The notes: generated by a model not told the origin, from the letters alone. A stretch of 49,734 bases of DNA from Oscillospiraceae bacterium (GCA_015068365.1 SVKR01000035.1:1-49734), one strand, 5' to 3'; shown: positions 2,606 through 45,580, numbered from the stretch's first letter. Numbers and translations are program-made.

Positions 2606-3005
2606 AGTAGTCAAATGGTGTGTCATTGCCATCGGCGCGGCGGTGTTCGTGCTGAATCTGTTCTCGCTGGCAAAGCGGCGGATGACGCCGGTGCTCAGCG
2701 TGGCGTGGAGCATTTTTGCCGTGCTGCTGCTGGTGCTGGGCTTCACGCTGCATCTCTCGGAGCTGAACGCCCTCATGAGCCCCCCGGTCGCGCTGCTGCT
2801 GATCATCGCCATGCTGGGCGTGATCTTCACCTTCTACCATGTCAGCACACAGATCTCCGAGCTGGTGGACAAGACCAATGAGCTGACCATGCAGGTGTCG
2901 CTGCTCAACTCAGAAAATGTGCGATTGATCCGCGAGCTGCGGCAGCGTGAGGCGGCCAAGGCGGCTGCGGAGGACGGGGAATGCGAAAAAAGCTCCTGTT
3001 CGTGA
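2598..3005 (+). CDS. Small membrane protein, DUF2304-like, with C-terminal coiled-coil tail
   Basis: I chose the ATG at 2598, preceded by AAGGGGA, over the TTG at 2571. It overlaps the pelG stop by 8 nt. Three to four TM segments then a charged helix. This type is typically found next to GT2 genes. Confidence 0.55.
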   Translation: MGEVVKWCVIAIGAAVFVLNLFSLAKRRMTPVLSVAWSIFAVLLLVLGFTLHLSELNALMSPPVALLLIIAMLGVIFTFYHVSTQISELVDKTNELTMQVSLLNSENVRLIRELRQREAAKAAAEDGECEKSSCS

Positions 3006-4174
3006 TCAACACCCTGGGCTGCGGCGGCACGGAAAAAGCGCTGCTGAACCTGCTTTCCAGCCCGGAGATCGCGGCGTGTGACTGCTCGCTTTACGTCCTG
3101 CTGGGCCAGGGAGAGCTGGTCAGCCGTCTGCCGGCGCATGTGAAGCTGCTGAACCGGGATTACTGCGCCGCCGACGTGCTCTCCGCCCGCGGCCGGCGCA
3201 CCGCCGCCAGCCGGGCGATCCGCCTGGGGATGCACCGGGGCGCGCTGCTGCGCAGCCTGCCCTACATCGCCGGAAACGGCATGCGGATGCTGCGCTCCGG
3301 GCGCTGGAAGGCGGAAAAGCTGCTGTGGCGCGCCGTGGCGGAGGGCACCGCGCCGCCGGAGGAGGAATACGACCTGGCCGTGGCCTATCTGGAGGGCGGG
3401 GCGACTTACTTCGTCAGCCGCGCCGTCCGGGCCCGGCGCAAGGTGGCCTTCGTCCATGTGGATTACCGCCGCGCCGGCTATACCCGGGAGCTGGACCGGG
3501 GCTGCTATGCCCGCTTCGACCGCGTCTTCTGCGTCTCCGACGAGGTGCGCAGCGCCTTTTTGCAGGTCTACCCGGAGCTGGAGGAGAAGGTGGGCGTGTT
3601 CCACAATCTCATCGACCGGCCCCGCATCCTGGCCATGGCGGAGATGGGCCCGGGCTTCACCGACGGCTATGACGGCCCGCGCATCCTCACCGTGGGGCGG
3701 CTGGTGGAGCAGAAGGCCATCGGCCTTTCCGTGGAGGCCATGCGCATCCTGCGCGAGCGGGGCGTGCGCGCCCGGTGGTACGTCCTGGGCGAGGGGGAAG
3801 AGCGCGCAGCGCTGGAAAAGCAGATCGCCGCGGCGGGCCTTTCGTCGGACTTTCTGCTGCCCGGCGTGGAGGAAAACCCCTATCCCTTCTTCCGGCAGGC
3901 GGCGCTGTATGTCCACTGCTCCCGCTTTGAGGGCTGCAGCATCGCCGTGCAGGAGGCCCAGACCCTGGGCAAATGCGTCATCGTGTCGGACTGCAGCGGC
4001 AACCGCGGGCAGGTGACCGACGGGGTGGACGGGCTGCTGTGCGCGCTGACGCCCGCCGCCATCGCCGACGCGGTGGAGCGCGCGCTGGCGGACGCAGCGC
4101 TGCGCCGCCGTCTGGGACAGGCCGCGGCGGCAAAGCAGTTTGCAAGCGAAGACATCGGACTGATATTTCAATAG
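2981..4174 (+). CDS. Glycosyltransferase family 4 (GT-B, Glycos_transf_1)
   Basis: N-terminal KLLFVINTLGCGGTEKALLNL and C-terminal E-x7-E-like region (FEGCSIAVQEAQTLGKCVIVSD). GGAGGA RBS. Confidence 0.8.
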   Translation: MRKKLLFVINTLGCGGTEKALLNLLSSPEIAACDCSLYVLLGQGELVSRLPAHVKLLNRDYCAADVLSARGRRTAASRAIRLGMHRGALLRSLPYIAGNGMRMLRSGRWKAEKLLWRAVAEGTAPPEEEYDLAVAYLEGGATYFVSRAVRARRKVAFVHVDYRRAGYTRELDRGCYARFDRVFCVSDEVRSAFLQVYPELEEKVGVFHNLIDRPRILAMAEMGPGFTDGYDGPRILTVGRLVEQKAIGLSVEAMRILRERGVRARWYVLGEGEERAALEKQIAAAGLSSDFLLPGVEENPYPFFRQAALYVHCSRFEGCSIAVQEAQTLGKCVIVSDCSGNRGQVTDGVDGLLCALTPAAIADAVERALADAALRRRLGQAAAAKQFASEDIGLIFQ

Positions 4175-4186
4175 ATTGATTGCAAG

Positions 4187-5029
4187 GTGAACAAGGTGTT
4201 AGACAGAAGAGACAGCGTAAACAAACCGGTCCTGGTCATCATTCCGGCATATAATGAGGAGAAGAGCATCGGCCCGGTGCTCCGGGCCCTGCACGCCCCG
4301 GAGATCGCCCGGATCGCCGATGTGCTGGTGATGAACGACGCGTCCACCGACGCCACGGCGGAGCTGGTGTGGGACAGCGGCGCGCACTGCGTGACGCATG
4401 TGTTCAACCTGGGCTACGGCGGCGGGCTGCAGGTGGGCTACAAGTACGCCGTGCGCCAGGGCTACCGCTATGTCATCCAGATGGACGCCGACGGCCAGCA
4501 TGACGTGTGCAATGTCATGGCGCTTTACCAGGCGCTGACCGGGCCGGAAAAGCCGGACATTGTCGTGGGCAGCCGCTATATGGAGGGCAGCGCGGAGTAT
4601 AACCCCGGCACGCTGCGCAACGTGGCCTACCGCTGGTTCCGCTGGATTTTGCGGCGGATGACCGGGAAAAACCTGGCCGACCCCACCAGCGGACTGCAGG
4701 GCCTGAGCCGCCGCGCCGTCCGCTTTTATGCCCGCTACCAGCATTTTGACGACCGCTATCCCGACGCCAACATGCTCGCGCAGATGCTGCTTCTGGGCTT
4801 TTCGGTGGAGCAGATCCCCGCCGTCATGCACTACCGCACCGAGGGGAAGAGCATGCACTCCGGCGTCATCAAGCCCGCCATCTATATGCTGCGCATGACG
4901 CTGAACCTCATCGCCGTGTGGATCCGCATCCGCGTGCTGAAGATCAACGTGAACGAGGCGGAGCTGCTGCTGCATGAGGGGGAGGAAGCCCCGATCGAGG
5001 AGGCGCACGATGCCCCGGTCACAGTGTGA
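4187..5029 (+). CDS. Glycosyltransferase family 2 (DPM1/polyprenol-phosphate GT-like)
   Basis: VLVIIPAYNEEKSIGPVL, MNDASTD and QMDADGQHD motifs, with a C-terminal TM helix. The start is uncertain (GTG 4187 or GTG 4196). Confidence 0.85.
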   Translation: MNKVLDRRDSVNKPVLVIIPAYNEEKSIGPVLRALHAPEIARIADVLVMNDASTDATAELVWDSGAHCVTHVFNLGYGGGLQVGYKYAVRQGYRYVIQMDADGQHDVCNVMALYQALTGPEKPDIVVGSRYMEGSAEYNPGTLRNVAYRWFRWILRRMTGKNLADPTSGLQGLSRRAVRFYARYQHFDDRYPDANMLAQMLLLGFSVEQIPAVMHYRTEGKSMHSGVIKPAIYMLRMTLNLIAVWIRIRVLKINVNEAELLLHEGEEAPIEEAHDAPVTV

Positions 5030-6023
5030 GATCGACTTTGTGCTGACCTGGGTCAACGGCGATGACCCGGACTGGCGCGCAGCGCGTGAGCGCTTCCCGG
5101 TGCCCGGCGGCGCGGACGTGCGCCCGGAGCGCTACCGCGACTGGGGCTGGCTGCGCTGGTGGCTGCGGGGGGTGGAGCGCTTTGCGCCCTGGGTGCGCTG
5201 TGTGCATCTGGTGGCGGCGGGAGCGCTGCCGGACTGGCTGGACACCGCCCACCCGAAACTGCACATCGTCCGCCACGAGGACATTCTGCCGCCGGAGGCG
5301 CTGCCCTGCTTCAACGGCAACGCCCTGGAGGTGAACCTGCACCGCATCCCCGGCCTGACGGAGCAGTTTGTCTATTTCAACGACGACATGCTTCTGCTGC
5401 GCCCGACGGCGCCGGAGGATTTCTTCCGCGACGGAAAGCCCCGTGACATGCTGGCGGCCCAGCCCGTCATCGCAAACCCGGACAACCCGGTGATGAGCAG
5501 CATTCTGCTGAACGACTCCCTGGTCATCAGCCGCCACTTCCGCAAGCGCGAGGTCATGCGCCGGAACACGGGGCGCTGGTGGCACGTCGGCTATCCGCTG
5601 AAGTATTTCGGCTATAACCTGCTGGAGACGGCCTTTCCGCAATATACCGGCTTCTATACCGTCCACGGCCCGTCGCCGCTGCTGCGCCGCAGCTTTGAAG
5701 AGCTGTGGGATCTGGAGCCGGAGCCGCTGCGGGCCACCACGGCGCGGCGCTTCCGCTCCGCCGCGGACGTGACGCAGTACCTTTTCCGCGAGTGGGAAAA
5801 GCAGCGGGGCAACTTCGTCCCCGCCAACGTGGAGCGTGACCTGCTCTATTTTGAGGCAGACGACGTATCCCGCGCCTGCGCCGCGGTGCGCGCGCGCAAA
5901 CGCAAGATGATCTGCATCAACGACACCGGACGCCTTTCGGATTTTGCCGCGGCGCGGACGGCGCTGGAGGGCGCCTTCGCCGCGGTTTTGCCGGAGGCTT
6001 CGTCCTTTGAGGCGGCGCCATGA
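5010..6023 (+). CDS. Stealth-family capsular polysaccharide phosphotransferase (hexose-1-phosphate transferase)
   Basis: IDFVLTWVNGDDPDW (Stealth CR1-like) and YFNDDMLL (CR2-like). ATG at 5010, 6 nt after GAGGAGG. Overlaps the GT2 stop by 20 nt. Confidence 0.8.
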   Translation: MPRSQCEIDFVLTWVNGDDPDWRAARERFPVPGGADVRPERYRDWGWLRWWLRGVERFAPWVRCVHLVAAGALPDWLDTAHPKLHIVRHEDILPPEALPCFNGNALEVNLHRIPGLTEQFVYFNDDMLLLRPTAPEDFFRDGKPRDMLAAQPVIANPDNPVMSSILLNDSLVISRHFRKREVMRRNTGRWWHVGYPLKYFGYNLLETAFPQYTGFYTVHGPSPLLRRSFEELWDLEPEPLRATTARRFRSAADVTQYLFREWEKQRGNFVPANVERDLLYFEADDVSRACAAVRARKRKMICINDTGRLSDFAAARTALEGAFAAVLPEASSFEAAP

Positions 6024-7222
6024 GCGACGTGCTTTCAAGGGAGGAGACCGCGCTGCTGGCCCTGGCGCGCGCGGCGCTGACCGGCGCTGCGGCAGAGGGT
6101 GTCAGCGCGGACACGGACTGGGAGGGCCTTTGCGCCCTGGCGGAAAAGCACGCGGTGCTGCCGCTGCTGTGCCCGGTGCTGCAGGGCCTTGCGCCGGAGC
6201 GGCTGTGGAAGCCGGCGGCGGAGAAGTGCACCGCGCAGTTTTACCGCTTGGCGGTGATGAGCCGCTATTATACCGCGCTTCTGGCGGAGGCCGGCGTGAA
6301 GACCGTGGTGCTCAAGGGCGCGGGCGCGGCGCGGTATTACCCCGTGCCGGAGCACCGCAAAAGCGGCGACATCGACCTGCTGCTGGCCGATCCCGGGCAG
6401 ATGGAGCAGGCCTGCCGTGTCCTGGAATCCGACGGCGCCGCGGCGCTTTCGGAGCAGCACGCCAACCACCACCGCGCGTTCCGCAGCCCGGAGGGCATCG
6501 AGCTGGAGGTGCACAGCACGCTGACGGAGGATTTTGACGACGGGCGCGTCAACGCCCTGTGCGCTTCGCTGCGCGATGAACTCGGCCGCAGCGCCGAGGT
6601 GCGCGAGGTGCTGCCGGGCCTGGCGCTGCCCGTGCCGGACGCGGCGGGGCAGGCGGTCTCGCTGCTGCTGCACATGCTGCAGCACTTTCTGCGGGCCGGC
6701 TTCGGGCTGAAGCTGCTGTGCGACTGGGCGGCGTTCTGGAACGCGCTGCCCCCGGGGACGGACATGGCGCGCTATGAGCGCTTCGTGGACGAGGCCGGGG
6801 TGCGCGGCTTTGCCGACATGGCGGGCGGCGTGTGCGTGCGGTATCTGGGCCTGCGCCCGGAGCAATTGACGATCACGCGCAGCTTTGAAGCGGACACTGT
6901 TTGCACTTTCCTGCGCGAGGTCTTTGACGCGGAGGAGTTCGGGCGCAGCAGCAGCCGGCGCATGGTGATGGTGCGCCGGGGCCTTGCCGGCTACGTCCGG
7001 GAATTTCACCATCAGATGCACCTGAATTTTCCCCGCGCGGGACGATGCCCGCTGCTCTGGCCGGCGCTCTGGTGCGCCACGCTCTGGCGCTTTCTGCGCA
7101 ATAACCGCACCGTGCGCGGCACCACGACGGGGGCCGTTCTGAAGGAGGCGCGGCGGCGCAGCCGGCTCATGGAGCCGCTGGCACTGTTTCAGAATCAGAA
7201 AGATGTCGGTGAATCCCGGTAA
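6020..7222 (+). CDS. Uncharacterised nucleotidyltransferase (NTP_transf_5 type)
   Basis: VVLKGAGAARYYPVPEHRKSGDIDLLL is the typical minimal nucleotidyltransferase motif of this family. The ATG overlaps the Stealth stop (ATGA). Confidence 0.7.
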   Translation: MSDVLSREETALLALARAALTGAAAEGVSADTDWEGLCALAEKHAVLPLLCPVLQGLAPERLWKPAAEKCTAQFYRLAVMSRYYTALLAEAGVKTVVLKGAGAARYYPVPEHRKSGDIDLLLADPGQMEQACRVLESDGAAALSEQHANHHRAFRSPEGIELEVHSTLTEDFDDGRVNALCASLRDELGRSAEVREVLPGLALPVPDAAGQAVSLLLHMLQHFLRAGFGLKLLCDWAAFWNALPPGTDMARYERFVDEAGVRGFADMAGGVCVRYLGLRPEQLTITRSFEADTVCTFLREVFDAEEFGRSSSRRMVMVRRGLAGYVREFHHQMHLNFPRAGRCPLLWPALWCATLWRFLRNNRTVRGTTTGAVLKEARRRSRLMEPLALFQNQKDVGESR

Positions 7223-7242
7223 ATCTTGTACATTATTTCCAA

Positions 7243-7271
7243 TTGTAATGTTGACCTTTCCATGCTATACT
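7243..7271 (+). promoter_or_regulatory. Sigma-A-like promoter for the 146-aa ORF
   Basis: TTGTAA, 17 nt, TATACT, with an extended -10 TGc, inside an AT-rich 89-nt intergenic island. Confidence 0.5.
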
Positions 7272-7311
7272 CTAAATGTGAAATTATTTCCTGTTTGAAA
7301 GGGGTAATCAT

Positions 7312-7752
7312 ATGTATTCCAAACCCATCGTTCTGACCCACAGCGACATGGCCGAGGGCGTTTATGCCGCCAGCGGCGCGGCCACCTGCTGGTCCGGCAG
7401 CTGTCCCAGCGTGCAGAACTGGAACGGCTCTCACAACGTTTTTGAAGTCCGCATTTCCCACAGTGCCGACGTGCAGCACATCTCCAACGCCGTGACCATC
7501 ACGATCCAGTTCAACAGCCCGCTGACGGATGTCTACGCCGAGAACGGCTGGAGCTGCACTGCCAACGGCAGCACCGTCACCGTGACCAGACCCAGCCATG
7601 CCAACGCCTACAACTCCGGCGACAACGTGACTTTCAAGATCTGGGCCAAGGCCGCGGATGAGACCACCACCAAGGCCCTGTATGCCAACATCACCGGCTT
7701 CAGCTGCGATTACAGCGCCAACGTCCAGGGCAACGGCGGCGACGGCAACTAA
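7312..7752 (+). CDS. Hypothetical 146-aa protein; candidate substrate or cargo of the flanking modification/export cassette
   Basis: AAAGGGG RBS 7 nt before the ATG, own promoter and terminator, and C-ending codon bias like the host genes. No hydrophobic signal peptide. N-terminus MYSKPIVLTHSDMAEGVYAASGAA, then C-x4-C, then a Thr/Ser/Asn-rich beta-type body. Confidence 0.75.
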   Translation: MYSKPIVLTHSDMAEGVYAASGAATCWSGSCPSVQNWNGSHNVFEVRISHSADVQHISNAVTITIQFNSPLTDVYAENGWSCTANGSTVTVTRPSHANAYNSGDNVTFKIWAKAADETTTKALYANITGFSCDYSANVQGNGGDGN

Positions 7753-7782
7753 GCCGCAGCGCAAACCCAACTCAGAAGCAAA

Positions 7783-7819
7783 AAGCACCGCAGACACACT
7801 GCGGTGCTTTTCCGTTTTT
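7783..7819. terminator. Shared (convergent) intrinsic terminator
   Basis: AAGCACCGCAG / CTGCGGTGCTT stem followed by TTCCGTTTTT, with an A-run on the other side. It sits between convergent genes. Confidence 0.7.
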
Positions 7820-7824
7820 ACCGT

Positions 7825-9600
7825 TCAAAACTCCCGGATGAGCTGCTCCACCTCGTCGCCGGAGAGCAGCGTGAGGCGCTTGTCGCGGATCTGATAGACC
7901 CGGGTGCACATGGTCAGCACCGTGGGGCGGTGGGTGGTGACGATGCACACGCGGGGGTACTCGTCGGCCATGATGCTGCGCAGCACCCGCCGCTCCGTGG
8001 CCACGTCCAGGGCGGAGGAGGCCTCGTCCAGCAGCAGGATCGGGCTGCGGCGCAGCAGCGCGCGCGCGATGGACAGGCGCTGGGCCTGCCCCTCGGAAAA
8101 GCCGCCGCCCCGCTCCTTGACGGCGCTGTCGATGCCGTCGGGCAGCTTGTCCACGAAATCCAGCGCGCAGGCCAGACGCAGCGCATCGCGGATCTCATCG
8201 TCCGTGGCGTCGGGGCAGACGGTGCGCATATTCTCGGCGATGGTGCCGGAGAACATGGTGTTGCCCTGGGGCACATAGGCGAAGGCGCTGCGCGCCGCCG
8301 GGGTCAGCGGCAGGGTTTCGCCGTCCGCGCCGCGCAGTGTGACGGTGCCGGCGTGAGGCTGCACCAGCGCCAGCAGCAGGCGCAGCATGGTGGTCTTGCC
8401 CTCGCCGCTGGGGCCGACCAGGCCGATGATCTCATGCGGCCGGGCCGTGAAGGAGGCGCCGGAGAAGACCTGGGTGCCGGTCTTGTAGCTGTAATCCACC
8501 GCGTCCACCTCCAGGCTGATGCCCTCGGTGCGGTGGGCTTCGATGAACTGCTCGGCGCGTTCGGTGCCGCTGTAATCCTCCTGGGGCATCTCCAGAATGT
8601 CCATGAGCCGCCCGGCGGAGGTGGTGAGGGAGATGGCGCTGGGCACGATGCCGGCCAGGGAGTTGACCGCGCCGGTCAGCGTGCCGCTGAGGGCCAGGAA
8701 CATGGTCATGGAGCCGTAGGTGATGGCGCCGCTCCAGACCCGGTAGATGCCCCAGCCGTAGGAGCTGTAGCTGACCAGCAGCCCCACAAAGCCCAGGATC
8801 ACGCTGGTGGCCATGGACATGCGGGAGAACTCCAGGCGCATGTTGATGTAGTCGTCCTGCAGCTGCCGCAGCCGCGCCACATAGAGCTTCACCAGTCCGA
8901 AGGCCTTGATGGTCTGGATGTTGGAAAAGGTCTCCTGGTTGAAGCCGGACATTCTCGCTGCCATCTGGGCGCTGCGCTGGTTGTTGCTCTGCATCCGGTT
9001 CAGCAGCCGCCGGGACATGACGAGGCTGAAGGGGATGCCCAGCAGGGCGAAGATGGCAAAGCTGGGGTCATGGTACAGCACCACGTACAGCGCGCTGAAA
9101 AAGCGGAACATATTGATGACCAGATTTGGCACAAAGCCCAGCACGCCGTTGGAGATGGCCGAGGCGTCGCTGCTCCAGCGGGTCAGCAGGTCGCCGGTGT
9201 GGTAGGCCGTGAGGCTCTCCCAGTCGGTGACGAGGATCTTGGAGAAGATGTCCTGCTTGATCTCCGCGTCCACCCGCATGCTGATGCGGGCGGAGACATA
9301 GCCGGTGATCTGGCTGACGACGATGTTGCCGACGGCCAGACCGATCATGATGGAAAAGGTGCGGATCAGCTCGCCGGTGCGGTGGCCGGTGATGATGTCC
9401 ACCAGATCGCGGCTGACCATGCTGGTGAGCAGCCCCACCAGCGAACCGGCCATGCCCAAAAGCGTGTAGAAGATCATGGCGCGGTGATAGCGCTTGGCAT
9501 AATTGTAGATCCACATGGCCTGGCGCCAGATCTCCCGGATGCGGCCGGACTTGACGCGCTCCCGGTAAAAGCGCAGGCGGTTTTTCAGACTGTCAGCCAT
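7825..9600 (-). CDS. ABC exporter, fused permease/ATPase (MsbA/type I exporter fold), no C39 peptidase domain
   Basis: Six TM segments. Walker A GPSGEGKTT, signature FSEGQAQRLSIARA, Walker B ILLLDEASSALD. Confidence 0.9.
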   Translation of the reverse strand: MADSLKNRLRFYRERVKSGRIREIWRQAMWIYNYAKRYHRAMIFYTLLGMAGSLVGLLTSMVSRDLVDIITGHRTGELIRTFSIMIGLAVGNIVVSQITGYVSARISMRVDAEIKQDIFSKILVTDWESLTAYHTGDLLTRWSSDASAISNGVLGFVPNLVINMFRFFSALYVVLYHDPSFAIFALLGIPFSLVMSRRLLNRMQSNNQRSAQMAARMSGFNQETFSNIQTIKAFGLVKLYVARLRQLQDDYINMRLEFSRMSMATSVILGFVGLLVSYSSYGWGIYRVWSGAITYGSMTMFLALSGTLTGAVNSLAGIVPSAISLTTSAGRLMDILEMPQEDYSGTERAEQFIEAHRTEGISLEVDAVDYSYKTGTQVFSGASFTARPHEIIGLVGPSGEGKTTMLRLLLALVQPHAGTVTLRGADGETLPLTPAARSAFAYVPQGNTMFSGTIAENMRTVCPDATDDEIRDALRLACALDFVDKLPDGIDSAVKERGGGFSEGQAQRLSIARALLRRSPILLLDEASSALDVATERRVLRSIMADEYPRVCIVTTHRPTVLTMCTRVYQIRDKRLTLLSGDEVEQLIREF

Positions 9601-10762
9601 GTCCGCCCTCCTCCAAAAACGCGTCGATGGCCCGCTTCAGCGTCTCCGCGGCCTGGGGCTGCGGGGTGCATTCCAGCTCCCACATGCCGCAGTGCCGGGC
9701 CAGAAGCGCGGCAAAGGTGAGGTTCTCCTGCAAAAGCGTTTCGGTCCACACCGGGGACACCAGCCGGTTGGCGCAGCGCAGTGGTCTCTCCTCCGGCGGC
9801 AGGGGGCGGGCGGCGTTTTCGCCCGCGCGGCGCAGGAAGGCAATGCCGCCCAGAGGATGGCGCTCCCGCCGGGCGATGCCGCTGGTGCCGCACCAGGGCA
9901 GGGGGTGGAACACGGCGCCGCCGCCCGTGACGGAGAGCAGCGCCAGGTCGCCGTTGAGCACCGGGACGCCGTACCCGGCCTGCCACAGGCGGGCGTGGGT
10001 GCTTTTGCCCGTCCCGGCGGAGGCGGAGAAGAGCCAGACGCGCTCCCGATAGAGGACGGAGGCGGCGTGCATGGCGAAAAAACCGCACTTCTGCGCGCGA
10101 AAAAGCGCCACATGGCGCAGCGCGTGAAAGAGGTCGTCCCTGGCGCGGGCCTCGTCATAGCCGGGGTGCAGGGTGATGACGGCCCGGTCCCCCGCCGGCG
10201 TCATTGCCGCGCCGGCGACGTCCGGCATGGTGGGAAAGCGCAGCAGCAGGCAGCTCTCGCCGGCGTAGACCTCCAGCTCACGGTTTGCCAGCAGGCAGCG
10301 CAGCCCCGCCGGGCCCGGCGCTGCGCCGGAGACGACGGCCACGCTCTGCCGGGGGCGCTGCGCGGCGTCCACAGGCTCGAGGTAGGGCGCAAAGTCGCCG
10401 TGCAGCAGCGCCTCGGCGCAGCAAAGCCGCACGCGCAGCGGCCCCACGGCCAGGTCGGCGCAAGGGCTGGCCAGGTCGAGCGGGTCGGGAAACGCCCCCT
10501 CCAGCACGCCGAGGGCGCGCATCTGCCCCACAAAGCCGGCGGCGTCGCCCGCGGCGCGGGCGCGCTCCGCCTCCGGCAGGGCGGCCAGAAAGGCCTCCTC
10601 CGCCGCGTCGGCGTCCGGGCAGGCCTCCAGAAGCTTCCACAGCGCCGCGCCGCCGCCTTCCAGGCGCAGGGCGGGGCGCTGCTCGGCCACAGCCTGGCCA
10701 AAGGGCAGGAGCCATGCGCCGTCCGGCAGGTTTTGCAGCGTATAAAACGGATTCTTTTTCAT
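9593..10762 (-). CDS. Fusion protein: N-terminal PqqD-like (RRE) domain + HPr-kinase-related kinase domain
   Basis: I chose the ATG at 10762 (MKKNPFYTLQNL), preceded by GAGGG. The N-terminal ~95 aa fit the PqqD pattern (..LPDGAWLLPF..ALRLEGGGAALWKLLE..). The C-terminal part has the P-loop SASAGTGKST and LNGDLALL, as in HprK-like kinases. The stop overlaps the ABC start by 8 nt. Confidence 0.65.
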   Translation of the reverse strand: MKKNPFYTLQNLPDGAWLLPFGQAVAEQRPALRLEGGGAALWKLLEACPDADAAEEAFLAALPEAERARAAGDAAGFVGQMRALGVLEGAFPDPLDLASPCADLAVGPLRVRLCCAEALLHGDFAPYLEPVDAAQRPRQSVAVVSGAAPGPAGLRCLLANRELEVYAGESCLLLRFPTMPDVAGAAMTPAGDRAVITLHPGYDEARARDDLFHALRHVALFRAQKCGFFAMHAASVLYRERVWLFSASAGTGKSTHARLWQAGYGVPVLNGDLALLSVTGGGAVFHPLPWCGTSGIARRERHPLGGIAFLRRAGENAARPLPPEERPLRCANRLVSPVWTETLLQENLTFAALLARHCGMWELECTPQPQAAETLKRAIDAFLEEGGHG

Positions 10763-10791
10763 AAGGACCCTCATTTGTGCGCAAATAGGAC

Positions 10792-10820
10792 TTGCCAAGC
10801 CTGCGCACTTGTCATAAAAT
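10792..10820 (+). promoter_or_regulatory. Sigma-A-like promoter for the peptidase gene
   Basis: TTGCCA, 17 nt, TAAAAT. This makes the track's TTG start at 10792 implausible. Confidence 0.55.
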
Positions 10821-10857
10821 ACTATTTATAACGCATGGAAAGCGGGAGGCGCCGCCC

Positions 10858-11295
10858 TTGGAGCGAAGCGGGGGAAAAGTGGACATCGAAGCCTGCCTCG
10901 CCGCAGGGGAGACGGTGCAGTTTCCCATCCGGGGCTGGAGCATGTATCCCTTCCTCGCCGACGGGCGGGACCAGGCGGTGGTCGCCCCGGCGGAGGGGAC
11001 GGCGCTGCGCCGCGGGGACGTGGCGCTTTACCGGCGGGACGGCGGCATACTGGTGCTGCACCGCGTCTGGCGGCACGACGCCGCGGGGCTGTGGTTCGTG
11101 GGCGACAACCAGACCGCGGTGGAAGGCCCGCTGCGGCCCGACCAGGTCCGCGGCAAGCTGACCGCCCTGTGCCGCAAGGGGCGGATGATCTCCGCCGACG
11201 ATGCGCGCTACCGGATCCTCAGCCGGCTGTGGCTTCTCGCGCGGCCGCTTCGGCCCGCGATCTCCCACGCGGTCCATGCGCTGCGAAATCTGTAA
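10858..11295 (+). CDS. S24/S26-family serine peptidase, SipW/ER-type (Ser-His) signature, no N-terminal TM anchor
   Basis: TTG at 10858 lies 8 nt after GGGAGG (GTG 10879 is an alternative). Motifs GWSMYPFL (Ser box), VLHRVW (His where P-type signal peptidases and LexA carry Lys) and GDNQTAVEGP. Confidence 0.65.
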   Translation: MERSGGKVDIEACLAAGETVQFPIRGWSMYPFLADGRDQAVVAPAEGTALRRGDVALYRRDGGILVLHRVWRHDAAGLWFVGDNQTAVEGPLRPDQVRGKLTALCRKGRMISADDARYRILSRLWLLARPLRPAISHAVHALRNL

Positions 11296-18066: not shown

Positions 18067-20526
18067 ATGACGAACTATAATCAGGCATCCTGTGACATTC
18101 TGATCCTCGGCGGCGGCATCGGCGGACTTTCCTGCGCCGTCTCCATCAAAGAGCGCAACCCCGACGCCGACGTGCTGGTGGTGGAAAAGAACTTTGCCGG
18201 TTACGCCGGCAAGGCCAACCGCGGCGGCGGCGTGCTGCAGTACTTCCCGGACCGCGTGGATCCCTGGGGCTTTGCCGTGTTCCACGCCAAGAACATCGGC
18301 GCGGACTTCACCGATCAGCCCCTCATGGCCCGCTATGTCTCCCAGAACAGCGCCATGATGGACAAGCTGGACGAGTGGGGCGTGAACATCCCCCGCAACC
18401 CGGACGGCAGCCTGAACGTCATGCCCACCGGCCCGATGACCGCCATGATCTGCGTGGACCTGGACATCACCGTCAAGGTGCGCCGCACGGCGGAGAAGAA
18501 GGGCGTCCGCTTCATGGACAAGACCGTCATGGCCGACCTGCTGGGTGATGAGAAAGGCGTCAAGGGCGCCGTGGTCTTCTCCGTGCTGGACGGCACCGTG
18601 ACCGCCATCAGCGCCAAGAAGGTCGTCCTCGCCACCGGCAGCCAGGACTATCGCGTGGGCTCCATGTGGGGCTCCGCCCGCGGCGACGGCATTCTGGCCG
18701 CCTACAAGCTGGGCGCGGAGATGCGCAACACCGAGTTCGGCAACTTCACCCAGATCGCCCGCTACCGCAGCCACAACGAGGTCGTGTTCGGCGAGAACTA
18801 TATGTACAACGCCAAGGGCGAGTTCATCACCGCCAACTTCCGCATCGGGCCGCGGGAGACGGACATCTCCTCCCGCACCATCCGCGAGTGGTACCTCCAG
18901 ATGATGGCCGGCAACGGCCCGATCCATCTGGATTACGGCGATGAGCGCGGCGACGGCGAGGACTCCATGGAGCGTATGTGGGCCCGCCCCTACGGCAAGA
19001 AGTTCCGCCAGCTCAATGACGAAACCGCCAAGAGCGTTGACACCGACCTGGAGGTCGCGCCGCTGTTCATCGGCGAGCAGAGCCCCATCAAGGTCGACCA
19101 CGATATGAAGACCACCGTCCCCGGCCTGTACGCCATCGGCGACTGCTCTTACTGCGGCTCCGGCCTGGCCGGCGCCGTGCCGGCACCTCCGGGCCGCAAC
19201 CGCGGCAGCGGCATCCTGAACGCCGTGTTCTCCGCCATTGAGGCCGCCAACGACCTGGGCAAGGCTGACCTGAGCGGCGCGCTGCCCGAGCTGAGCGAGC
19301 AGCAGATCGACGCTGCCGCCAAGCGCATCACCGGCTATATGGACCGCGCCGAGGGCGTGAAGCCCGAGGCCGTGGTGGAGCTGGTGCAGAAGGCCATGTG
19401 CCCGGTGGAGCAGTCCGTCTACATGAAGGCCGACCGCATGGAAAAGGCCATGGGCTTCGTCAAGGAGGCCAAGGCCCTGCTGCCCAGGATGGCCGCCAGG
19501 GACCTGCACGAGGCCATGAAGTGCCTGGAGGCCGAGGCCATGGTGCTGTCCGCCGAGATGCACTATCGCGCCAGCGAGATGCGCAAGGAGTCCCGCGGCT
19601 GGTTCCTGCGGGAGGATTATCCCGAGCAGGACAACGTCAACTGGCACAAGTACATCATCGTGAAGCGCGGTGCTGACGGCGAGATGACCCTGCACACCGA
19701 GCCCGTGGACACCACCGGCTGGATCTACACGCCGGAGCATCTGGTGGCCATCAGTGACGAGGTGAAGAACGGGCCGCTCTATAAGTATTATCAGATGCCC
19801 ATGACCCCGCCGGACCCGGCCCGCTATGCCGTGATGGCCGCCCCGGTGGACCCGGCGAAGATGATCACCCCCTTTGAGATGAACCGCCTGTTTGACCCGG
19901 GCTATCTGGACTGCGAGTGCGGCTATGCCCAGCTGCCCGACGGCGGCGCCATGCTGGCCAACCTGACCGACATGCCCAACGTCACGCCGGAGATGTTCGA
20001 CTTCTGGTTTGCCTGGCACGTCCTGGCCGACGGCCGCTATACCATCTGGAACCGCGAGGACCATTACAGCGCCGTCAGCGATTCCATCGAGAAGGGCAAC
20101 AACAAGGCCCTGTCCATGAAGGAGCGCTATTGGGACACCACCCACGCCGTGTTCGAGGACTGCGGCCTTGGGCCGGAGCGCATCGTCATCAACTTCCGCA
20201 ACCCCGCCGACATCGGCTTTGACCCGGAGAAGCTGAAGGACTTCAAGGGCACCATCGTCTGCTCCGGCAACGAGGAGAGCCCCTGCATCATGTGCCACTT
20301 CCTCCGCCCGAAGGCCGACGGCAAGGGCTATGAGCTGCGCTCCCGCTTCTGGTTCGGCTACCACATCGTCAACGGCAAGCCCGAGTGCCACCCGATGCTG
20401 CACGCCGGCCCGTTCCCGCTGATGCCCGTGATGGCCCTGCTGGCCCACAACATCAAGGAGTTCACCAACCTCGCCGACAAGCTGCCGCAGATCTATGCGG
20501 AGTTCCACGAGGACTTCGAGAAGTAA
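18067..20526 (+). CDS. Fusion: FAD-dependent oxidoreductase (fumarate reductase/AprA-like flavoprotein) + C-terminal DAPG/phloretin hydrolase (PhlG)-like domain
   Basis: N-terminal ILILGGGIGGLSCA dinucleotide fold and AIGDCS motif. From about nt 19790, NRLFDPGYLDCECGYAQLPDGGAMLANLTDMPNVTPEMFDFWFAWH and LLAHNIKEF (H-x3-E) match my recollection of PhlG-family C-C hydrolases. Confidence 0.75.
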   Translation: MTNYNQASCDILILGGGIGGLSCAVSIKERNPDADVLVVEKNFAGYAGKANRGGGVLQYFPDRVDPWGFAVFHAKNIGADFTDQPLMARYVSQNSAMMDKLDEWGVNIPRNPDGSLNVMPTGPMTAMICVDLDITVKVRRTAEKKGVRFMDKTVMADLLGDEKGVKGAVVFSVLDGTVTAISAKKVVLATGSQDYRVGSMWGSARGDGILAAYKLGAEMRNTEFGNFTQIARYRSHNEVVFGENYMYNAKGEFITANFRIGPRETDISSRTIREWYLQMMAGNGPIHLDYGDERGDGEDSMERMWARPYGKKFRQLNDETAKSVDTDLEVAPLFIGEQSPIKVDHDMKTTVPGLYAIGDCSYCGSGLAGAVPAPPGRNRGSGILNAVFSAIEAANDLGKADLSGALPELSEQQIDAAAKRITGYMDRAEGVKPEAVVELVQKAMCPVEQSVYMKADRMEKAMGFVKEAKALLPRMAARDLHEAMKCLEAEAMVLSAEMHYRASEMRKESRGWFLREDYPEQDNVNWHKYIIVKRGADGEMTLHTEPVDTTGWIYTPEHLVAISDEVKNGPLYKYYQMPMTPPDPARYAVMAAPVDPAKMITPFEMNRLFDPGYLDCECGYAQLPDGGAMLANLTDMPNVTPEMFDFWFAWHVLADGRYTIWNREDHYSAVSDSIEKGNNKALSMKERYWDTTHAVFEDCGLGPERIVINFRNPADIGFDPEKLKDFKGTIVCSGNEESPCIMCHFLRPKADGKGYELRSRFWFGYHIVNGKPECHPMLHAGPFPLMPVMALLAHNIKEFTNLADKLPQIYAEFHEDFEK

Positions 20527-27376: not shown

Positions 27377-27723
27377 TGGTGGAGGCGAGGGGAGTCGAAC
27401 CCCTGTCCGAAAGCACTTCCTCGGGACCTTCTCCGGGCGCAGACGATTCTTTACATTCCCTCCTCCGGCCGTGAGTCGTCACACTGTCGGATTCAGTAGC
27501 TTCATGATGCATGGTGCGCGCAAAGCTTAGCGCACGCACGTTCTCCGCTGATCGACGCCCCATCCCGGGCCGCGGAACTCCCGGGTGGGACGGCCGCTAA
27601 TTAAGCAGCGGCAAGAACAGTACGATTGTTGTTCTTTAATTTATAATTGCCCGTTTTAAGGATGCCAGGCGCATCCGCCCGCTGATCCCGGCTCCACACC
27701 CCCGTCGAAACCGAAACGCCCCC
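27377..27723 (-). ncRNA. ssrA: tmRNA (SsrA)
   Basis: On the minus strand, the 5' end reads GGGGGCGTTTCGGTTTCGACGGGGGTG and the 3' end GGACAGGGGTTCGACTCCCCTCGCCTCCACCA. The internal tag frame GGC AAT TAT AAA TTA AAG AAC AAC AAT CGT ACT GTT CTT GCC GCT GCT TAA gives ..NNNRTVLAAA. Confidence 0.92.
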
Positions 27724-28320: not shown

Positions 28321-28782
28321 TCATCTGTTCTTCATTTGGCGGTCGATGTCGCGGTCAGCCTGGCGCTTGGCGTCGGCATCCCGCTTGTCGTACAGCTTCT
28401 TGCCCTTGCACAGGCCCACCTCCACCTTCACGCGGCTGTCCTTGAAATAGACGGACAGGGGCACCAGGGCCACGCCCTCCTGCATCACCTTGGCGTTGAG
28501 CTTCAGGATCTCCTTCTTGTGCATCAGAAGCCGCCGGATGCGGTCCGGGTCCCGGTTGAAGATGTTGCCCTTTTCGTAGGGGCTGATGTGCATGCCGCGG
28601 ACGAAAAGCTCGCCGTTTTTGATGGTGCAGTAGGCGTCCTTGAGGTTCAGCGTGCCGGCGCGGATGGACTTGACCTCCGTGCCGCTCAGCTCGATGCCCG
28701 CCTCGTAGCGGTCCAGGACGAAGTAGTCATGGAACGCCTTGCGGTTTGCCGCCGCCTGTTTGATTCCGGTCTGCCTGGGCAT
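28321..28782 (-). CDS. smpB: SsrA-binding protein SmpB
   Basis: I chose the ATG at 28782. NRKAFHDYF, AGIEL.GTEVKS.R and RRLLMHKKEI. Confidence 0.92.
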   Translation of the reverse strand: MPRQTGIKQAAANRKAFHDYFVLDRYEAGIELSGTEVKSIRAGTLNLKDAYCTIKNGELFVRGMHISPYEKGNIFNRDPDRIRRLLMHKKEILKLNAKVMQEGVALVPLSVYFKDSRVKVEVGLCKGKKLYDKRDADAKRQADRDIDRQMKNR

Positions 28783-28850
28783 CGGTCCGACGCCTCCTTT
28801 CGCCATACTGCTCAAATGAATTATACCACAACGGCGAAAGAAAAAAAGGT

Positions 28851-39599: not shown

Positions 39600-39740
39600 G
39601 ATTGCGAGTGGAACTCCGCAGAAGGGCACGGGCCTGACCGCGGAGGGATCGCGCTCTGGAGAAGCTCACATTCGCTGTGAGGGCCGAAGGTGCAAGGTGC
39701 CGGGCAAGGCGCCAAATCTCTCAGGCAAAAGGACAGGGCT
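39600..39740 (+). promoter_or_regulatory. Glycine riboswitch (one complete aptamer preceded by a degenerate ghost-like stem)
   Basis: CTCTGGAGAAGCTC..GGGCCGAAGGTGCAAGG..AATCTCTCAGGCAAAAGGACAGGG closely matches the glycine aptamer core (GGAGA / CCGAAGG.GCAA / CTCAGGCAAAAGGAC). Confidence 0.88.
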
Positions 39741-39783
39741 GCTGCCTGCATTTTTTGCAGGCAAAGGGTTTGCCGTTTTTGCC

Positions 39784-39820
39784 GGGCTTCTCCAGACACG
39801 GGGAAGCCCGTTTGTTTTTG
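39784..39820 (+). terminator. Riboswitch expression-platform terminator
   Basis: GGGCTTCTCC / GGGGAAGCCC stem followed by GTTTGTTTTT, 47 nt before the symporter ATG. Confidence 0.7.
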
Positions 39821-39866
39821 GTTCTTATTTTTATTTAAGAAGAGAGCAAAGAAGGAGGAACCATCT

Positions 39867-41303
39867 ATGACAGTCAGCGAGTTTATCACCAAAATGGACG
39901 ACATCGCGTGGGGCAGCGTCGTGCTGTGCCTGCTCGTGGGTGTCGGCCTGATCCTCAGCATCAGCACCCGCTTCCTGCAGTTCCGTAAGTTCGGCCATGC
40001 CATGAAGAACACCATCGGCAAGGTCTTCAAAAAGCAGAAGGCCGGCAAGGGCGAGGTCACCCCGCTCCAGGCCCTGACCACCGCCCTGGCGGCCACCGTC
40101 GGCACCGGCAACATCGCCGGCGTCACCGGCGCCATCGTCATCGGCGGCCCCGGCGCCGTCTTCTGGATGTGGCTGTCCGCCCTGGTGGGCATGTGCACCA
40201 AGTTTGCCGAGGTCACGCTGGCGGTCCATTACCGCGAGCGCAACGACCAGGGCGACTGGGTCGGCGGCCCGATGTACTACATCAAGAACGGCCTGGGCAA
40301 GGGCTTCGGCTGGCTGAGCGTGCTGTTCTGCATCTTCGGCTGCCTGGCCGCCTTCGGCATCGGCAACGCCACCCAGGTGCAGTCCATCGGCGAGTCCATC
40401 GGCTCCGCCATCGACGCGCTGGGCGGCAACGTCGGCGCGAGCACCATCAGCTTCCTGGGCTCTGAGTTCACCCTGTGCAACCTCATCGTCGGCATCGTCG
40501 TGGCCGTCGTCGTGGCCCTGGTGCTGTTCGGCGGCATCAAGCGCATCGGCTCCGTCACCGAGAAGATCGTCCCGGTCATGGCCGTGGTCTACATCCTCGC
40601 CTCCCTGATCGTCATCCTCGCCAACATCAGCCACATCGGCCAGGTGTTCGGCATGATCTTCAAGGGCGCGTTCAACGCGGAGGCTGCCCTGGGCGGCGCC
40701 TTCGGCATCACCGTGTCCACCTCCATCACCAAGGGCATCGCCCGCGGCTGCTTCTCCAACGAGGCCGGCCTCGGCTCCGCCCCCATGGCCCACGCCGCCA
40801 CCAGCGAGACCAACGCGGTCAAGCAGGGCTTCTTCGGCATCTTCGAGGTGTTCATGGACACCATCGTCATCTGCACCCTCACCGCCCTCACCGTGCTGAC
40901 CAGCGCCTGCGCCGGCAACGTGGAGATCGCCTGGGGCACCAGCGGCGGCGCCGCCATCGTCTCCGCCGCGCTCAGCAGCATCCTCGGCCGCGGCTTCGGC
41001 AGCGTCATCCTGGCGCTGTGCCTGGCCCTGTTCGCCCTGTCCACCATCCTGAGCTGGAGCCTGTACGGCACCCGCTGCTTCGAGTATCTGTTCGGCACCA
41101 AGGCCAGCATCGGCTACAAGCTCGTGTTCATCCTGTTCGCCATCGTCGGCGCCACCATGAGCCTGTCCGACGCCTGGAACCTGGCCGACGCGCTCAACGG
41201 CTTCATGGCCATCCCCAACCTCATCGCCATCCTGACCCTCAGCCCCGTCATCATCAAGCTGGTGCGGGAGTACTTCCACGAGGACAAGAACCTGGCGAAG
41301 TGA
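39867..41303 (+). CDS. Alanine/glycine:cation symporter (AGCS family)
   Basis: ATG at 39867 after GAAGGAGGA. LQFRKFGH.., GEVTPLQALTTALAATVGTGNIAGV and NEAGLGSAPMAHA. Confidence 0.9.
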   Translation: MTVSEFITKMDDIAWGSVVLCLLVGVGLILSISTRFLQFRKFGHAMKNTIGKVFKKQKAGKGEVTPLQALTTALAATVGTGNIAGVTGAIVIGGPGAVFWMWLSALVGMCTKFAEVTLAVHYRERNDQGDWVGGPMYYIKNGLGKGFGWLSVLFCIFGCLAAFGIGNATQVQSIGESIGSAIDALGGNVGASTISFLGSEFTLCNLIVGIVVAVVVALVLFGGIKRIGSVTEKIVPVMAVVYILASLIVILANISHIGQVFGMIFKGAFNAEAALGGAFGITVSTSITKGIARGCFSNEAGLGSAPMAHAATSETNAVKQGFFGIFEVFMDTIVICTLTALTVLTSACAGNVEIAWGTSGGAAIVSAALSSILGRGFGSVILALCLALFALSTILSWSLYGTRCFEYLFGTKASIGYKLVFILFAIVGATMSLSDAWNLADALNGFMAIPNLIAILTLSPVIIKLVREYFHEDKNLAK

Positions 41304-43729: not shown

Positions 43730-44260
43730 TTACTCGGCTGCGGGGGCTTCCGCGGCGGGCGCGCCGCCCTTTTGCTCCAGGATCTGGTTCAGCACGACGG
43801 CCAGGCTGGTGATGGGCGCCAGCAGGGTACCGAAGACCTGAGAATACAGCGCTTCCTTGCTGGGCAGCGCGGAGATCTCGGCGATCTCGGCATCGCTCAG
43901 GACTTTGCCGTCCATGAACGCGGCCTTGATGTTGAACACGTCATTCAGCTTCTTGGAATAGTCGCTGATGATCCGGAAGGGGGCGATGGGGTCGCCGGCA
44001 CTGGTCGCGAGAGAAGTCGTCCCGTTCAGGATGGGATCGATCTCCTTCAGCCCGCAGTCATCTAGCGCGAAACGAGTCAGGGTATTCTTGATGACGGAAT
44101 ACTCCACATCATTCTTGCGCAGCTCGGTACGCAGTTCGGTGTCCTGGGCGACGGTGATGCCCTTGTAGTCCACGAACACGCCGGAGTTGGCATTCTTGAT
44201 GCGCTCGATCAGCGCCGCAACGATTGCCTGCTTCTCGCTGAGGATTTTTGCGTTCGGCAT
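43730..44260 (-). CDS. rplJ: 50S ribosomal protein L10
   Basis: ATG at 44260 after GGAGGTGA. VFVDYKGITVAQDTELR..LR and VIKNTL motifs. Confidence 0.93.
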   Translation of the reverse strand: MPNAKILSEKQAIVAALIERIKNANSGVFVDYKGITVAQDTELRTELRKNDVEYSVIKNTLTRFALDDCGLKEIDPILNGTTSLATSAGDPIAPFRIISDYSKKLNDVFNIKAAFMDGKVLSDAEIAEISALPSKEALYSQVFGTLLAPITSLAVVLNQILEQKGGAPAAEAPAAE

Positions 44261-44403
44261 GGTTTCACCTCCGATGAGATTTGCGCCCGGAAAAGAAAAA
44301 TCCCTGTGCCCGGAAAGACACAAGGACAGAAAGCAACAATGAATCTTGATGCCGTCCTCGGCAGGACTTACGGCCCGGGGGCCACCTGCTGTCTTTGGAG
44401 CGC
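44261..44403 (-). promoter_or_regulatory. Probable ribosomal protein L10 leader (autoregulatory 5' UTR)
   Basis: The ~140-nt leader contains AAGACAGCAGGTG..GTAAGTCCTGCCGAGGAC, which resembles the L10-leader/23S mimic as I recall it. A hairpin CCGGGCACAGGG..TTTTCTTTTCCGGGCG follows. Confidence 0.5.
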
Positions 44404-44409
44404 TATGAC

Positions 44410-45580
<1,171 letters not shown>

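Follow-up and report, generated by a model that had tools for sequence, protein, structure and literature searches.

We analysed a 49,734-nt stretch of DNA from Oscillospiraceae bacterium (GCA_015068365.1, SVKR01000035.1:1-49734; about 65% G+C), here called the window in its whole length, and in particular a cassette of genes at positions 6020-11295. A first-pass annotation had placed here five genes around one small open reading frame (ORF) encoding 146 aa, with an NTP_transf_5-type nucleotidyltransferase, a convergent ABC exporter, a fused PqqD-like/HPr-kinase-like protein and a divergent S24/S26 peptidase. ORF listing, translation and Pfam searches reproduced the gene content, coordinates and overlaps of this cassette as well as its promoter, ribosome-binding and terminator signals (Table 1). 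The stop of the fusion gene overlaps the start of the ABC gene by 8 nt. The fusion gene lies within a longer ORF (9593-10798), and the ATG at 10762, which yields 389 aa, the length of a 99%-identical relative (P0084), is its likely start; the peptidase gene is likewise contained in a longer ORF (10792-11295, plus strand). The 146-aa ORF has a G+C content at third codon positions of 0.86, on par with the adjoining genes. In Pfam scans of 40 ORFs spanning the whole window we found no lasso cyclase (asparagine-synthase-type), transglutaminase-type (B2) protease, radical SAM, YcaO or lanthionine enzyme, as had been noted before.

A cassette of this kind has already been described. The linear polyphosphorylated peptide (LPP) family of peptides that are made on ribosomes and modified post-translationally (RiPPs) was defined by Popov et al. 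(Nat Commun 2026;17:6633; PMC13381572) in Bacillota, mainly Bacilli, with SipW-like peptidases as the starting point. Its conserved set comprises a signal-peptidase-I-like (SpI-like) peptidase, a discrete RiPP recognition element (RRE), a kinase resembling HprK, an NTP_transf_5 protein and an MsbA-like pump, as in the lppA-K-B-S-D-N cluster of Paenibacillus alginolyticus DSM5050 (PMC13381572). The earlier proposal of an undescribed pathway with no known product thus has to be withdrawn; what is new at this locus is the RRE-kinase fusion, the leader consensus, the divergent kinase, the Lachnospiraceae hosts and the domain-sized cargo.

Table 1. Coordinates of the cassette, its signals and the adjoining glycan genes, as positions in the window.
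Feature	Position	Strand	Basis or detail
GT4 glycosyltransferase	2981-4174	+	Pfam Glycos_transf_1, 8.6e-29
GT2 polyprenyl-phosphate-sugar-synthase-like gene	4187-5029	+	Glycos_transf_2 6.3e-16; NCBIfam PpgS-like 7.5e-27, under its cut-off
Stealth-family gene, hexose-1-phosphate transferase type	4974-6023	+	Stealth_CR1-4; CR2 1.1e-39
NTP_transf_5 nucleotidyltransferase-fold enzyme, LppN/PsmN-like	6020-7222	+	PF14907 1.8e-35
Promoter-like site, precursor gene	7243-7271	+	TTGTAA-17-TATACT, extended TG
146-aa precursor ORF	7312-7752	+	AGGGG ribosome-binding site 8 nt upstream
Precursor leader, residues 1-18, MYSKPIVLTHSDMAEGVY	7312-7365	+	YxxPxVL RRE-binding motif
AASG box, A19-A20-S21-G22	7366-7377	+	Ser21 codon 7372-7374
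Cargo domain, residues 26-135, beta-sandwich (model)	7387-7716	+	AlphaFold2 (AF2), Foldseek
C-terminal tail of precursor, YSANVQGNGGDGN plus stop	7717-7752	+	Conserved, disordered in model
Hairpin resembling an intrinsic terminator, where the precursor and ABC genes converge	7781-7811	+	13-bp stem, 7 GC pairs, then T-run
MsbA-like ABC exporter (predicted), LppD-like	7825-9600	-	ABC_membrane 9.1e-34; ABC_tran 6.1e-26
HprK/PEPCK-like P-loop kinase part of fusion (predicted)	9593-10486	-	AF2, Foldseek; P-loop ASAGTGKST at 9998-10024
RRE (PqqD-like winged-helix) domain of fusion (predicted)	10490-10762	-	PqqD match, hhalign vs LppB
Promoter-like site, peptidase gene, in divergent intergenic region	10792-10820	+	TTGCCA-17-TAAAAT
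SipW/archaeal-type signal-peptidase-I-like peptidase, LppS-like	10858-11295	+	TTG start 7 nt past GGAGG

The precursor and its leader

The 146-aa ORF, suggested earlier as the only plausible substrate of the cassette, is a genuine precursor and substrate: it begins with a leader suited to binding by a PqqD-type RRE, shares this leader with other proteins and co-occurs with the cassette genes. Its homologues form 83 clusters, all of ~145-150 aa and without a Pfam domain. A profile hidden Markov model (HMM) search, run without an index over 1.84 billion representatives, returned 443 relatives (threshold E <= 0.001); with few exceptions these are small stand-alone proteins that align from profile position 1; the sole large protein among the best 150 matches, P0283, has 1666 aa and eight stretches that match profile positions 59-96. 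In the alignments the N-terminus is near-invariant, M-x-x-Y-E-K-P-x-V-L-x-N-E-E-L-A-E-G-V-Y-A-A-S-G, and is followed by a variable linker and a conserved core; the leader in the window reads YSKPIVL...EGVY-AAS. S21 and G22 are unchanged in 47/47 precursor homologues.

The AF2 model divides the precursor in the same manner. Residues 1-22 are disordered (predicted local distance difference test score, pLDDT, < 50), residues 26-135 form a confident beta-sandwich (pLDDT mostly 88-96), and the tail again has a pLDDT of ~48. The solved folds closest to the cargo in Foldseek are the CBM2 cellulose/chitin-binding modules of C. fimi (6qfs and 1exg), with a modest template modelling (TM) score of 0.5-0.56, and an adhesin CLIPPER domain matches at 1.5e-4; judged by its modelled fold, the cargo thus appears to be a CBM2-like beta-sandwich. 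C26 and C132 of the cargo are conserved and could form a disulfide. In the tail, N137, V138, Q139 and G140 are invariant or conserved at >90%; this NVQG(G) tail is confined to cargo of the window type, and the other cargo types do not have it.

Ser21 is the predicted (poly)phosphorylation site, because its position matches Ser3 of the LppA cores (AQS, VVS), which is phosphorylated by experiment: in a heterologous host, LppK puts one to four phosphates on core Ser3 (PMC13381572). The leader is predicted to be cut at or near the bond between Y18 and A19, with an uncertainty of a residue or two, which would give AASG as the new N-terminus.

The leader is by no means restricted to this cargo. At related genome loci, the same N-terminus of ~22 residues heads cores of 5 or more unrelated kinds, among them the window type, one that is CBM2-like and one that is Cys-rich; their genes often form a tandem row immediately upstream of the ABC gene, and the second type gives a weak match to CBM_2. 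A metagenome scan seeded by the leader alone gave > 600 pattern matches, mostly from gut samples, of which 453 were confirmed; the 89 different complete cores group into 8 or more mutually unrelated clusters, with ~90-115 residues per core. Ser-Gly directly behind the leader is kept in all cargo types. Y-16 and P-13 of the LPP leader are required for RRE binding (PMC13381572), and across the unrelated cargo types the leader Tyr is present in 64/66 and the Pro in 65/66, counts that come from a search pattern in which the Tyr and Pro of YxxP had no part. A single leader therefore serves many unrelated cargo families of ~100 residues.

The RRE-kinase fusion

The fusion protein had been described as PqqD-like and HPr-kinase-like, and both folds are present. 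Its architecture recurs in > 140 homologue clusters, which PGAP names 'PqqD family protein'. The Pfam PqqD model is matched by 40/40 aligned family members (best 2e-12). A profile search of PDB sequences matched the RRE part only, with the leader-binding proteins of lasso and LPP clusters TbiB1 (3e-5) and LppB (9x8z, 0.012) among the best matches, along with PbaB1 and TfuB1, and hhalign of the RRE against LppB gave a probability of 93% (E 2.5e-7). In LppB, D70 and F74 hold the leader Tyr and Pro (PMC13381572); their counterparts in the alignment of the window protein are D85 and F89, and D85 is conserved at >= 90%. These similarities indicate that the N-terminal domain is a PqqD-type RRE, probably able to bind the YxxP leader.

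HprK/P and ATP-dependent phosphoenolpyruvate carboxykinase (PEPCK) share one P-loop kinase fold. In the AF2 model of the fusion (pLDDT 90.8), residues ~105-400 resemble ATP-PEPCK (8e-7) and HprK/P (1kkl, 2e-5) in Foldseek, and this part consists of a beta domain and a P-loop domain with the P-loop FSASAGTGKST. H244, the P-loop G262-x-G-K-S/T (K265) and D284 are invariant in the family. An hhalign comparison with B. subtilis HprK aligned the His and P-loop block only (His...GxSGxGKS in HprK), at a weak probability of 29%; at E <= 1 on 40 relatives, the only matches were to HprK_rel_A/ScmC models, with weak matches of TIGR04352 to 36/40 and of TIGR04249 to 28/40, all far under their cut-offs; Pfam Hpr_kinase_C matched none of the aligned family members; and at E <= 0.01 no NCBIfam model matched the fusion, the precursor or the NTP_transf_5 protein. 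Relatives carry a precomputed assignment to PF27840. Since the kinase model scores are weak, kinase activity is predicted from the fold and the conserved residues, and the modelled partner domain is best described as an HprK/PEPCK-like kinase fold.

Peptidase, exporter and nucleotidyltransferase

LppS, with S29, H68 and D93 as catalytic residues, cleaves after T-1 only when the leader is presented by LppB (PMC13381572). The window peptidase is 33% identical to LppS (WP_029196374.1) over 100 aa (BLASTP, E 1e-14) and keeps S29 and H68. It is closer still to a Lachnoclostridium SpI (39% identity, E 3e-23), which the LPP study lists outside the analysed sequence similarity network cluster 1 and marks ND (PMC13381572). 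Library matches are weak, namely Peptidase_S24 (1.2e-3) and the archaeal-type signal peptidase I model TIGR02228 (4e-7, under cut-off). The Ser lies in GWSMYP and the His in LVLHRV, which we take to be the Ser/His signature of ER/archaeal/SipW-type signal peptidases. By this homology the S24/S26 protein is the predicted leader peptidase, in agreement with the first-pass annotation.

The ABC protein has its best NCBIfam matches in the MsbA-type models TIGR02203 and TIGR02204, both under cut-off, and orthologues at E ~1e-250 adjoin leader ORFs elsewhere. Its role as the dedicated exporter is consistent with its presence at 41/44 genome and 25/26 metagenome loci (see below); export itself is predicted by homology. 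No C39 peptidase domain was matched on the protein, the membrane domain of which starts directly at residue 42. Double-glycine/PCAT export was rejected on that ground and on the leader, which misfits LSxxELxxIxGG save for the Glu at -8. A reading of the leader as a Sec signal was rejected as well, for want of a Sec-like hydrophobic core in its sequence.

The NTP_transf_5 protein scores 123 bits on PF14907 against a cut-off of 31 and contains the motif GAG...SGDIDLLL; PF14907 is also the family that the LPP study counts as 'putative NTP transferase' (PMC13381572). Its gene is often the final one of a Stealth/GT2/GT4 glycan operon, and it is translationally coupled in the window, where it overlaps the Stealth gene by 4 nt, and at several other loci; homologues of GT2 and GT4 lie near the precursor at many loci. 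The glycan operon that ends with NTP_transf_5 in the window has Pel-like exopolysaccharide genes directly upstream (44-2605), consisting of a PelF-like glycosyltransferase gene (DUF3492 plus GT1), cut by the start of the window, and PelG (E 9e-145).

Recurrence of the cassette

We compared two sets of loci, about 43-44 species-representative genome loci around precursor homologues, nearly all from metagenome-assembled genomes (MAGs) of Lachnospiraceae, and 26 metagenome loci of >= 12 kb found through the leader only. Of the 44 genome loci, 41 have the ABC gene by the precursor homologue, 28 the NTP_transf_5 gene, 21 the RRE-kinase, 18 a Stealth gene (counted as homologues <= 10 kb from the precursor) and 16 the peptidase; GT2, GT4, Wzx-like flippase and DUF4874/DUF4832 genes are also frequent. 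Among the 26 metagenome loci, the ABC gene and the RRE-kinase are each present at 25, the peptidase at 24, GT2 at 15, NTP_transf_5 at 14 and Stealth at 11. Recurrence of one gene set at 43 genome loci and at 26 long metagenome loci puts the arrangement far beyond chance. The co-localisation of ORF homologues with the cassette, proposed earlier as a check, is therefore found in both sets (44 genome and 26 metagenome loci); the range expected at the time, across Clostridia, was too wide, as the relatives belong mainly to Lachnospiraceae gut bacteria. A sister form of LPP is thus common in human and animal gut Lachnospiraceae, with > 450 metagenomic relatives.

At three loci (L051, L052 and L009), ~1-3 kb separate the leader ORFs from the ABC gene, and the intervening genes may encode additional conserved components.

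Interpretation of the cassette

We consider the cassette to be, quite probably, a Lachnospiraceae-type variant of the LPP RiPP pathway that acts on small folded proteins. The gene content, the folds, the homology to the Lpp proteins, the sharing of the leader and the co-occurrence support this reading; the sites of phosphorylation and of cleavage, the sequence of steps, leader binding and export would follow the LPP pathway by homology. The 146-aa precursor would be made with a disordered leader of ~18 residues, the YxxPxVL motif of which would be bound by the PqqD-type RRE at the N-terminus of the fusion (389 aa). The fused HprK/PEPCK-like kinase would phosphorylate the invariant Ser21 of the AASG box, probably repeatedly. 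The soluble SipW-type Ser/His peptidase would dock on the complex of RRE and leader and cut at or adjacent to the junction of EGVY and AASG, an RRE-dependent cleavage that may be favoured by phosphorylation. NTP_transf_5 may decorate the phosphate afterwards, and the MsbA-like ABC transporter would export the ~125-residue CBM2-like beta-sandwich.

Several observations weigh against this interpretation. In one clade of mouse-gut Lachnospiraceae MAGs (loci L012-L018, L020, L023-L025, L030, L033 and L035), the leader is fully conserved and neither the RRE-kinase nor the SipW-like peptidase lies within 10 kb; the gene order there is leader ORF, ABC, NTP_transf_5, Wzx, Stealth, two DUF4874/DUF4832 genes, GT2 and GT4. 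In the window peptidase a Glu stands opposite D93, the last of the three catalytic residues in LppS. The PqqD match of the window protein itself (residues 44-99 of the ORF 9593-10798) reaches 23.3 bits, 0.1 bit short of the gathering score (23.4), and the fusion scores 12-13 bits on the HprK-related models, the cut-offs of which are 125-200. The spacing from Tyr to Ser is one residue more than in LppA, and the residues preceding the cut (-3 to -1) are G-V-Y here vs. F-E-T in LPP; because of these two differences the exact cleavage site is uncertain. Finally, that an MsbA-like pump exports a folded 12-kDa sandwich is an assumption.

The alternatives concern the role of the cargo, the function of the P-loop protein and the identity of the substrate. 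As to the role, the cargo proteins might be antagonistic effectors of a polymorphic kind, large proteins comparable to bacteriocins, which the cassette would mature and export; such a role would be compatible with an LPP-type mechanism. Divergent cargo genes in tandem, the many unrelated families under one leader, the patchy distribution and the dedicated ABC exporter are in line with such a role, and the authors of the LPP study regard the dynamics of LPP as typical of conflict genes (PMC13381572). However, no immunity-like small membrane protein is conserved beside the cargo, the cargo folds resemble binding modules and not known toxins, and the linkage to polysaccharide genes is consistent, so that we regard effectors as unlikely.

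A second alternative is a leader-dependent secretion of carbohydrate-binding proteins of the matrix or capsule, comparable to SipW/TasA, in which phosphorylation would not be what matters: the RRE-P-loop protein would be an ATP-driven targeting chaperone that passes the cargo on to the ABC exporter, and the peptidase would remove an export signal. The CBM2-like sandwich and the weak CBM_2 match of the second cargo type, the position of the cassette inside Pel/Stealth/GT loci, the SipW-type peptidase, the ABC gene as the most constant partner and the clade that keeps leader and ABC gene without a nearby kinase and peptidase would all suit secretion. It is contradicted by the homologous LppK, a proven kinase on the equivalent Ser, by the invariant Ser-Gly after the leader in all cargo types, best read as a modification site, by the invariance of the HprK-type His, P-loop and Asp, and by a leader that lacks the hydrophobic core of a Sec signal; we therefore give it little credence. 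A degenerate or split lasso cluster, or an HPr-rel-A system, with its core enzyme elsewhere and the 146-aa ORF not its substrate, would explain the lasso B1 protein TbiB1 as the best PDB sequence match of the RRE, the known part of such kinases and NTP_transf_5 enzymes in lasso tailoring and the weak TIGR04352 matches, but is highly improbable given that the 49.7 kb contain no cyclase or B2 protease, that the ORF, in which the RRE-binding motif is present, accompanies the cassette at dozens of loci, that the TIGR04352 and TIGR04353 scores are far under cut-off and that B2 is replaced, as it is in LPP, by a SipW-type peptidase.

The LPP-type reading also bears on the part played by NTP_transf_5. 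LppN was inactive, and its authors propose a partner encoded outside the core cluster (PMC13381572). In the window, NTP_transf_5 is the last gene of a Stealth/GT operon and therefore fits this idea of an external partner; its coupling to that operon suggests phosphate-linked glycosylation and hints at where a partner of LppN might be found among the Stealth and glycosyltransferase genes. A more speculative extension, which we think improbable, is that the phospho-Ser at the new N-terminus becomes the site at which NTP_transf_5 and the co-transcribed Stealth, GT2 and GT4 enzymes assemble or attach a glycan via a phosphodiester, leading to proteins covalently conjugated to polysaccharide, by which the capsule or matrix would be organised. 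If this were true, the cassette would encode a leader-guided pathway of protein phosphoglycosylation and not one for a peptide natural product. Ser21 in the AASG box offers the LPP-type reading a concrete, testable site.

Other features of the window

A transfer-messenger RNA (tmRNA) gene at 27377-27723 (minus strand; Rfam 157.8 bits, missed by ARAGORN) adjoins SmpB (28321-28815) and lies within the one stretch of the window that is low in GC (24-28 kb, 0.51-0.55 vs. ~0.65). tmRNA genes are common integration sites, and a mobile remnant is therefore possible. A glycine riboswitch at 39646-39746 (plus strand) lies just ahead of a sodium:alanine symporter gene (39690-41303), and a ribosomal protein L10 leader at 44286-44416 (minus strand) lies upstream of the ORF 43730-44323. 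The gene at 18067-20526 (plus strand) encodes an 819-aa fusion of an FAD-binding fumarate-reductase-like flavoprotein with a C-terminal DAPG_hydrolase (PhiG) domain (E 7e-61), an unusual pairing.

Comparison with known systems

The cassette shares its trio of domain types with HPr-rel-A, which combines a kinase (TIGR04352, HprK_rel_A), a PqqD-like chaperone (TIGR04353, PqqD_rel_X) and a nucleotidyltransferase, and this label had been suggested for it. Membership was rejected: the window fusion scores 12.1 bits on TIGR04352 against a cut-off of 200, and TIGR04353 matches weakly in only 5/40 family members. The relationship is one of remote homology only.

In the Firmicute lasso peptides paeninodin and pseudomycoidin, a Ser of the linear precursor is the target of an HprK-like kinase, and in pseudomycoidin the phosphate is then extended with one or two hexoses by the nucleotidyltransferase (NTP_transf_5), much as the first-pass annotation had stated. 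Common to these clusters and the cassette are a PqqD-type RRE for [Y/W]xxPx[L/V], an HprK-like kinase, NTP_transf_5 and an ABC exporter. Unlike them, the cassette has neither a macrolactam cyclase nor a B2 cysteine protease, and its product would be a protein domain, in contrast to a threaded peptide of 20 aa. A degenerate lasso cluster was accordingly rejected, with no cyclase or B2 protease among the 40 scanned ORFs.

SipW of Bacillus subtilis processes the small beta-sandwich proteins TasA and TapA, encoded beside it, next to the eps operon. The likeness to the cassette lies in a dedicated archaeal/ER-type Ser/His signal peptidase, small beta-sandwich substrates and a polysaccharide/biofilm setting. 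In contrast to SipW/TasA, the substrates of the cassette are without a Sec signal peptide, no membrane anchor is obvious in the peptidase, recognition would be by an RRE and export by an ABC transporter.

The closest likeness in our comparison is to LPP. Five functions are common to both (SipW-type peptidase, PqqD RRE, HprK-like kinase, NTP_transf_5 and MsbA-like exporter). LPP clusters encode between one and three precursors (35-200 aa), which share the N-terminus YxxPxVLxHQxIxFETxxS and vary at the C-terminus, and the clusters sit within capsular polysaccharide loci, with a link to biofilm that is speculative in the paper (PMC13381572). The cassette likewise has a YxxPxVL leader followed by x-x-Ser, one leader with variable C-termini, several precursors, no cyclase and a polysaccharide-locus setting; a Bacilli LPP precursor reads MYEKPVVLNHRPIQFET before the cut and VVSG after it, vs. 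YEKPVVLANEELAEGVY and AASG for the precursor in the window.

Other features differ. The RRE is fused to the kinase in the window, whereas it is a discrete protein in LPP, and such a fusion is thereby shown to be possible in LPP-like systems. The window kinase is below the TIGR04249 score. The leader ends in ...NEELAEGVY before AASG, one residue longer than ...HQxIxFET before xxS, and leaders of the EGVYAASG type do not appear in the tables of Popov et al. (PMC13381572). The hosts are Lachnospiraceae gut bacteria, whereas those of LPP are mainly Bacilli. Above all, LPP is known so far from a disordered, Gly/Asn/Pro-rich core of 45 residues in Bacilli, whereas the cargo here is a folded beta-sandwich or Cys-rich protein of ~100-125 aa, so that the cassette would extend the logic of RiPPs to whole protein domains.

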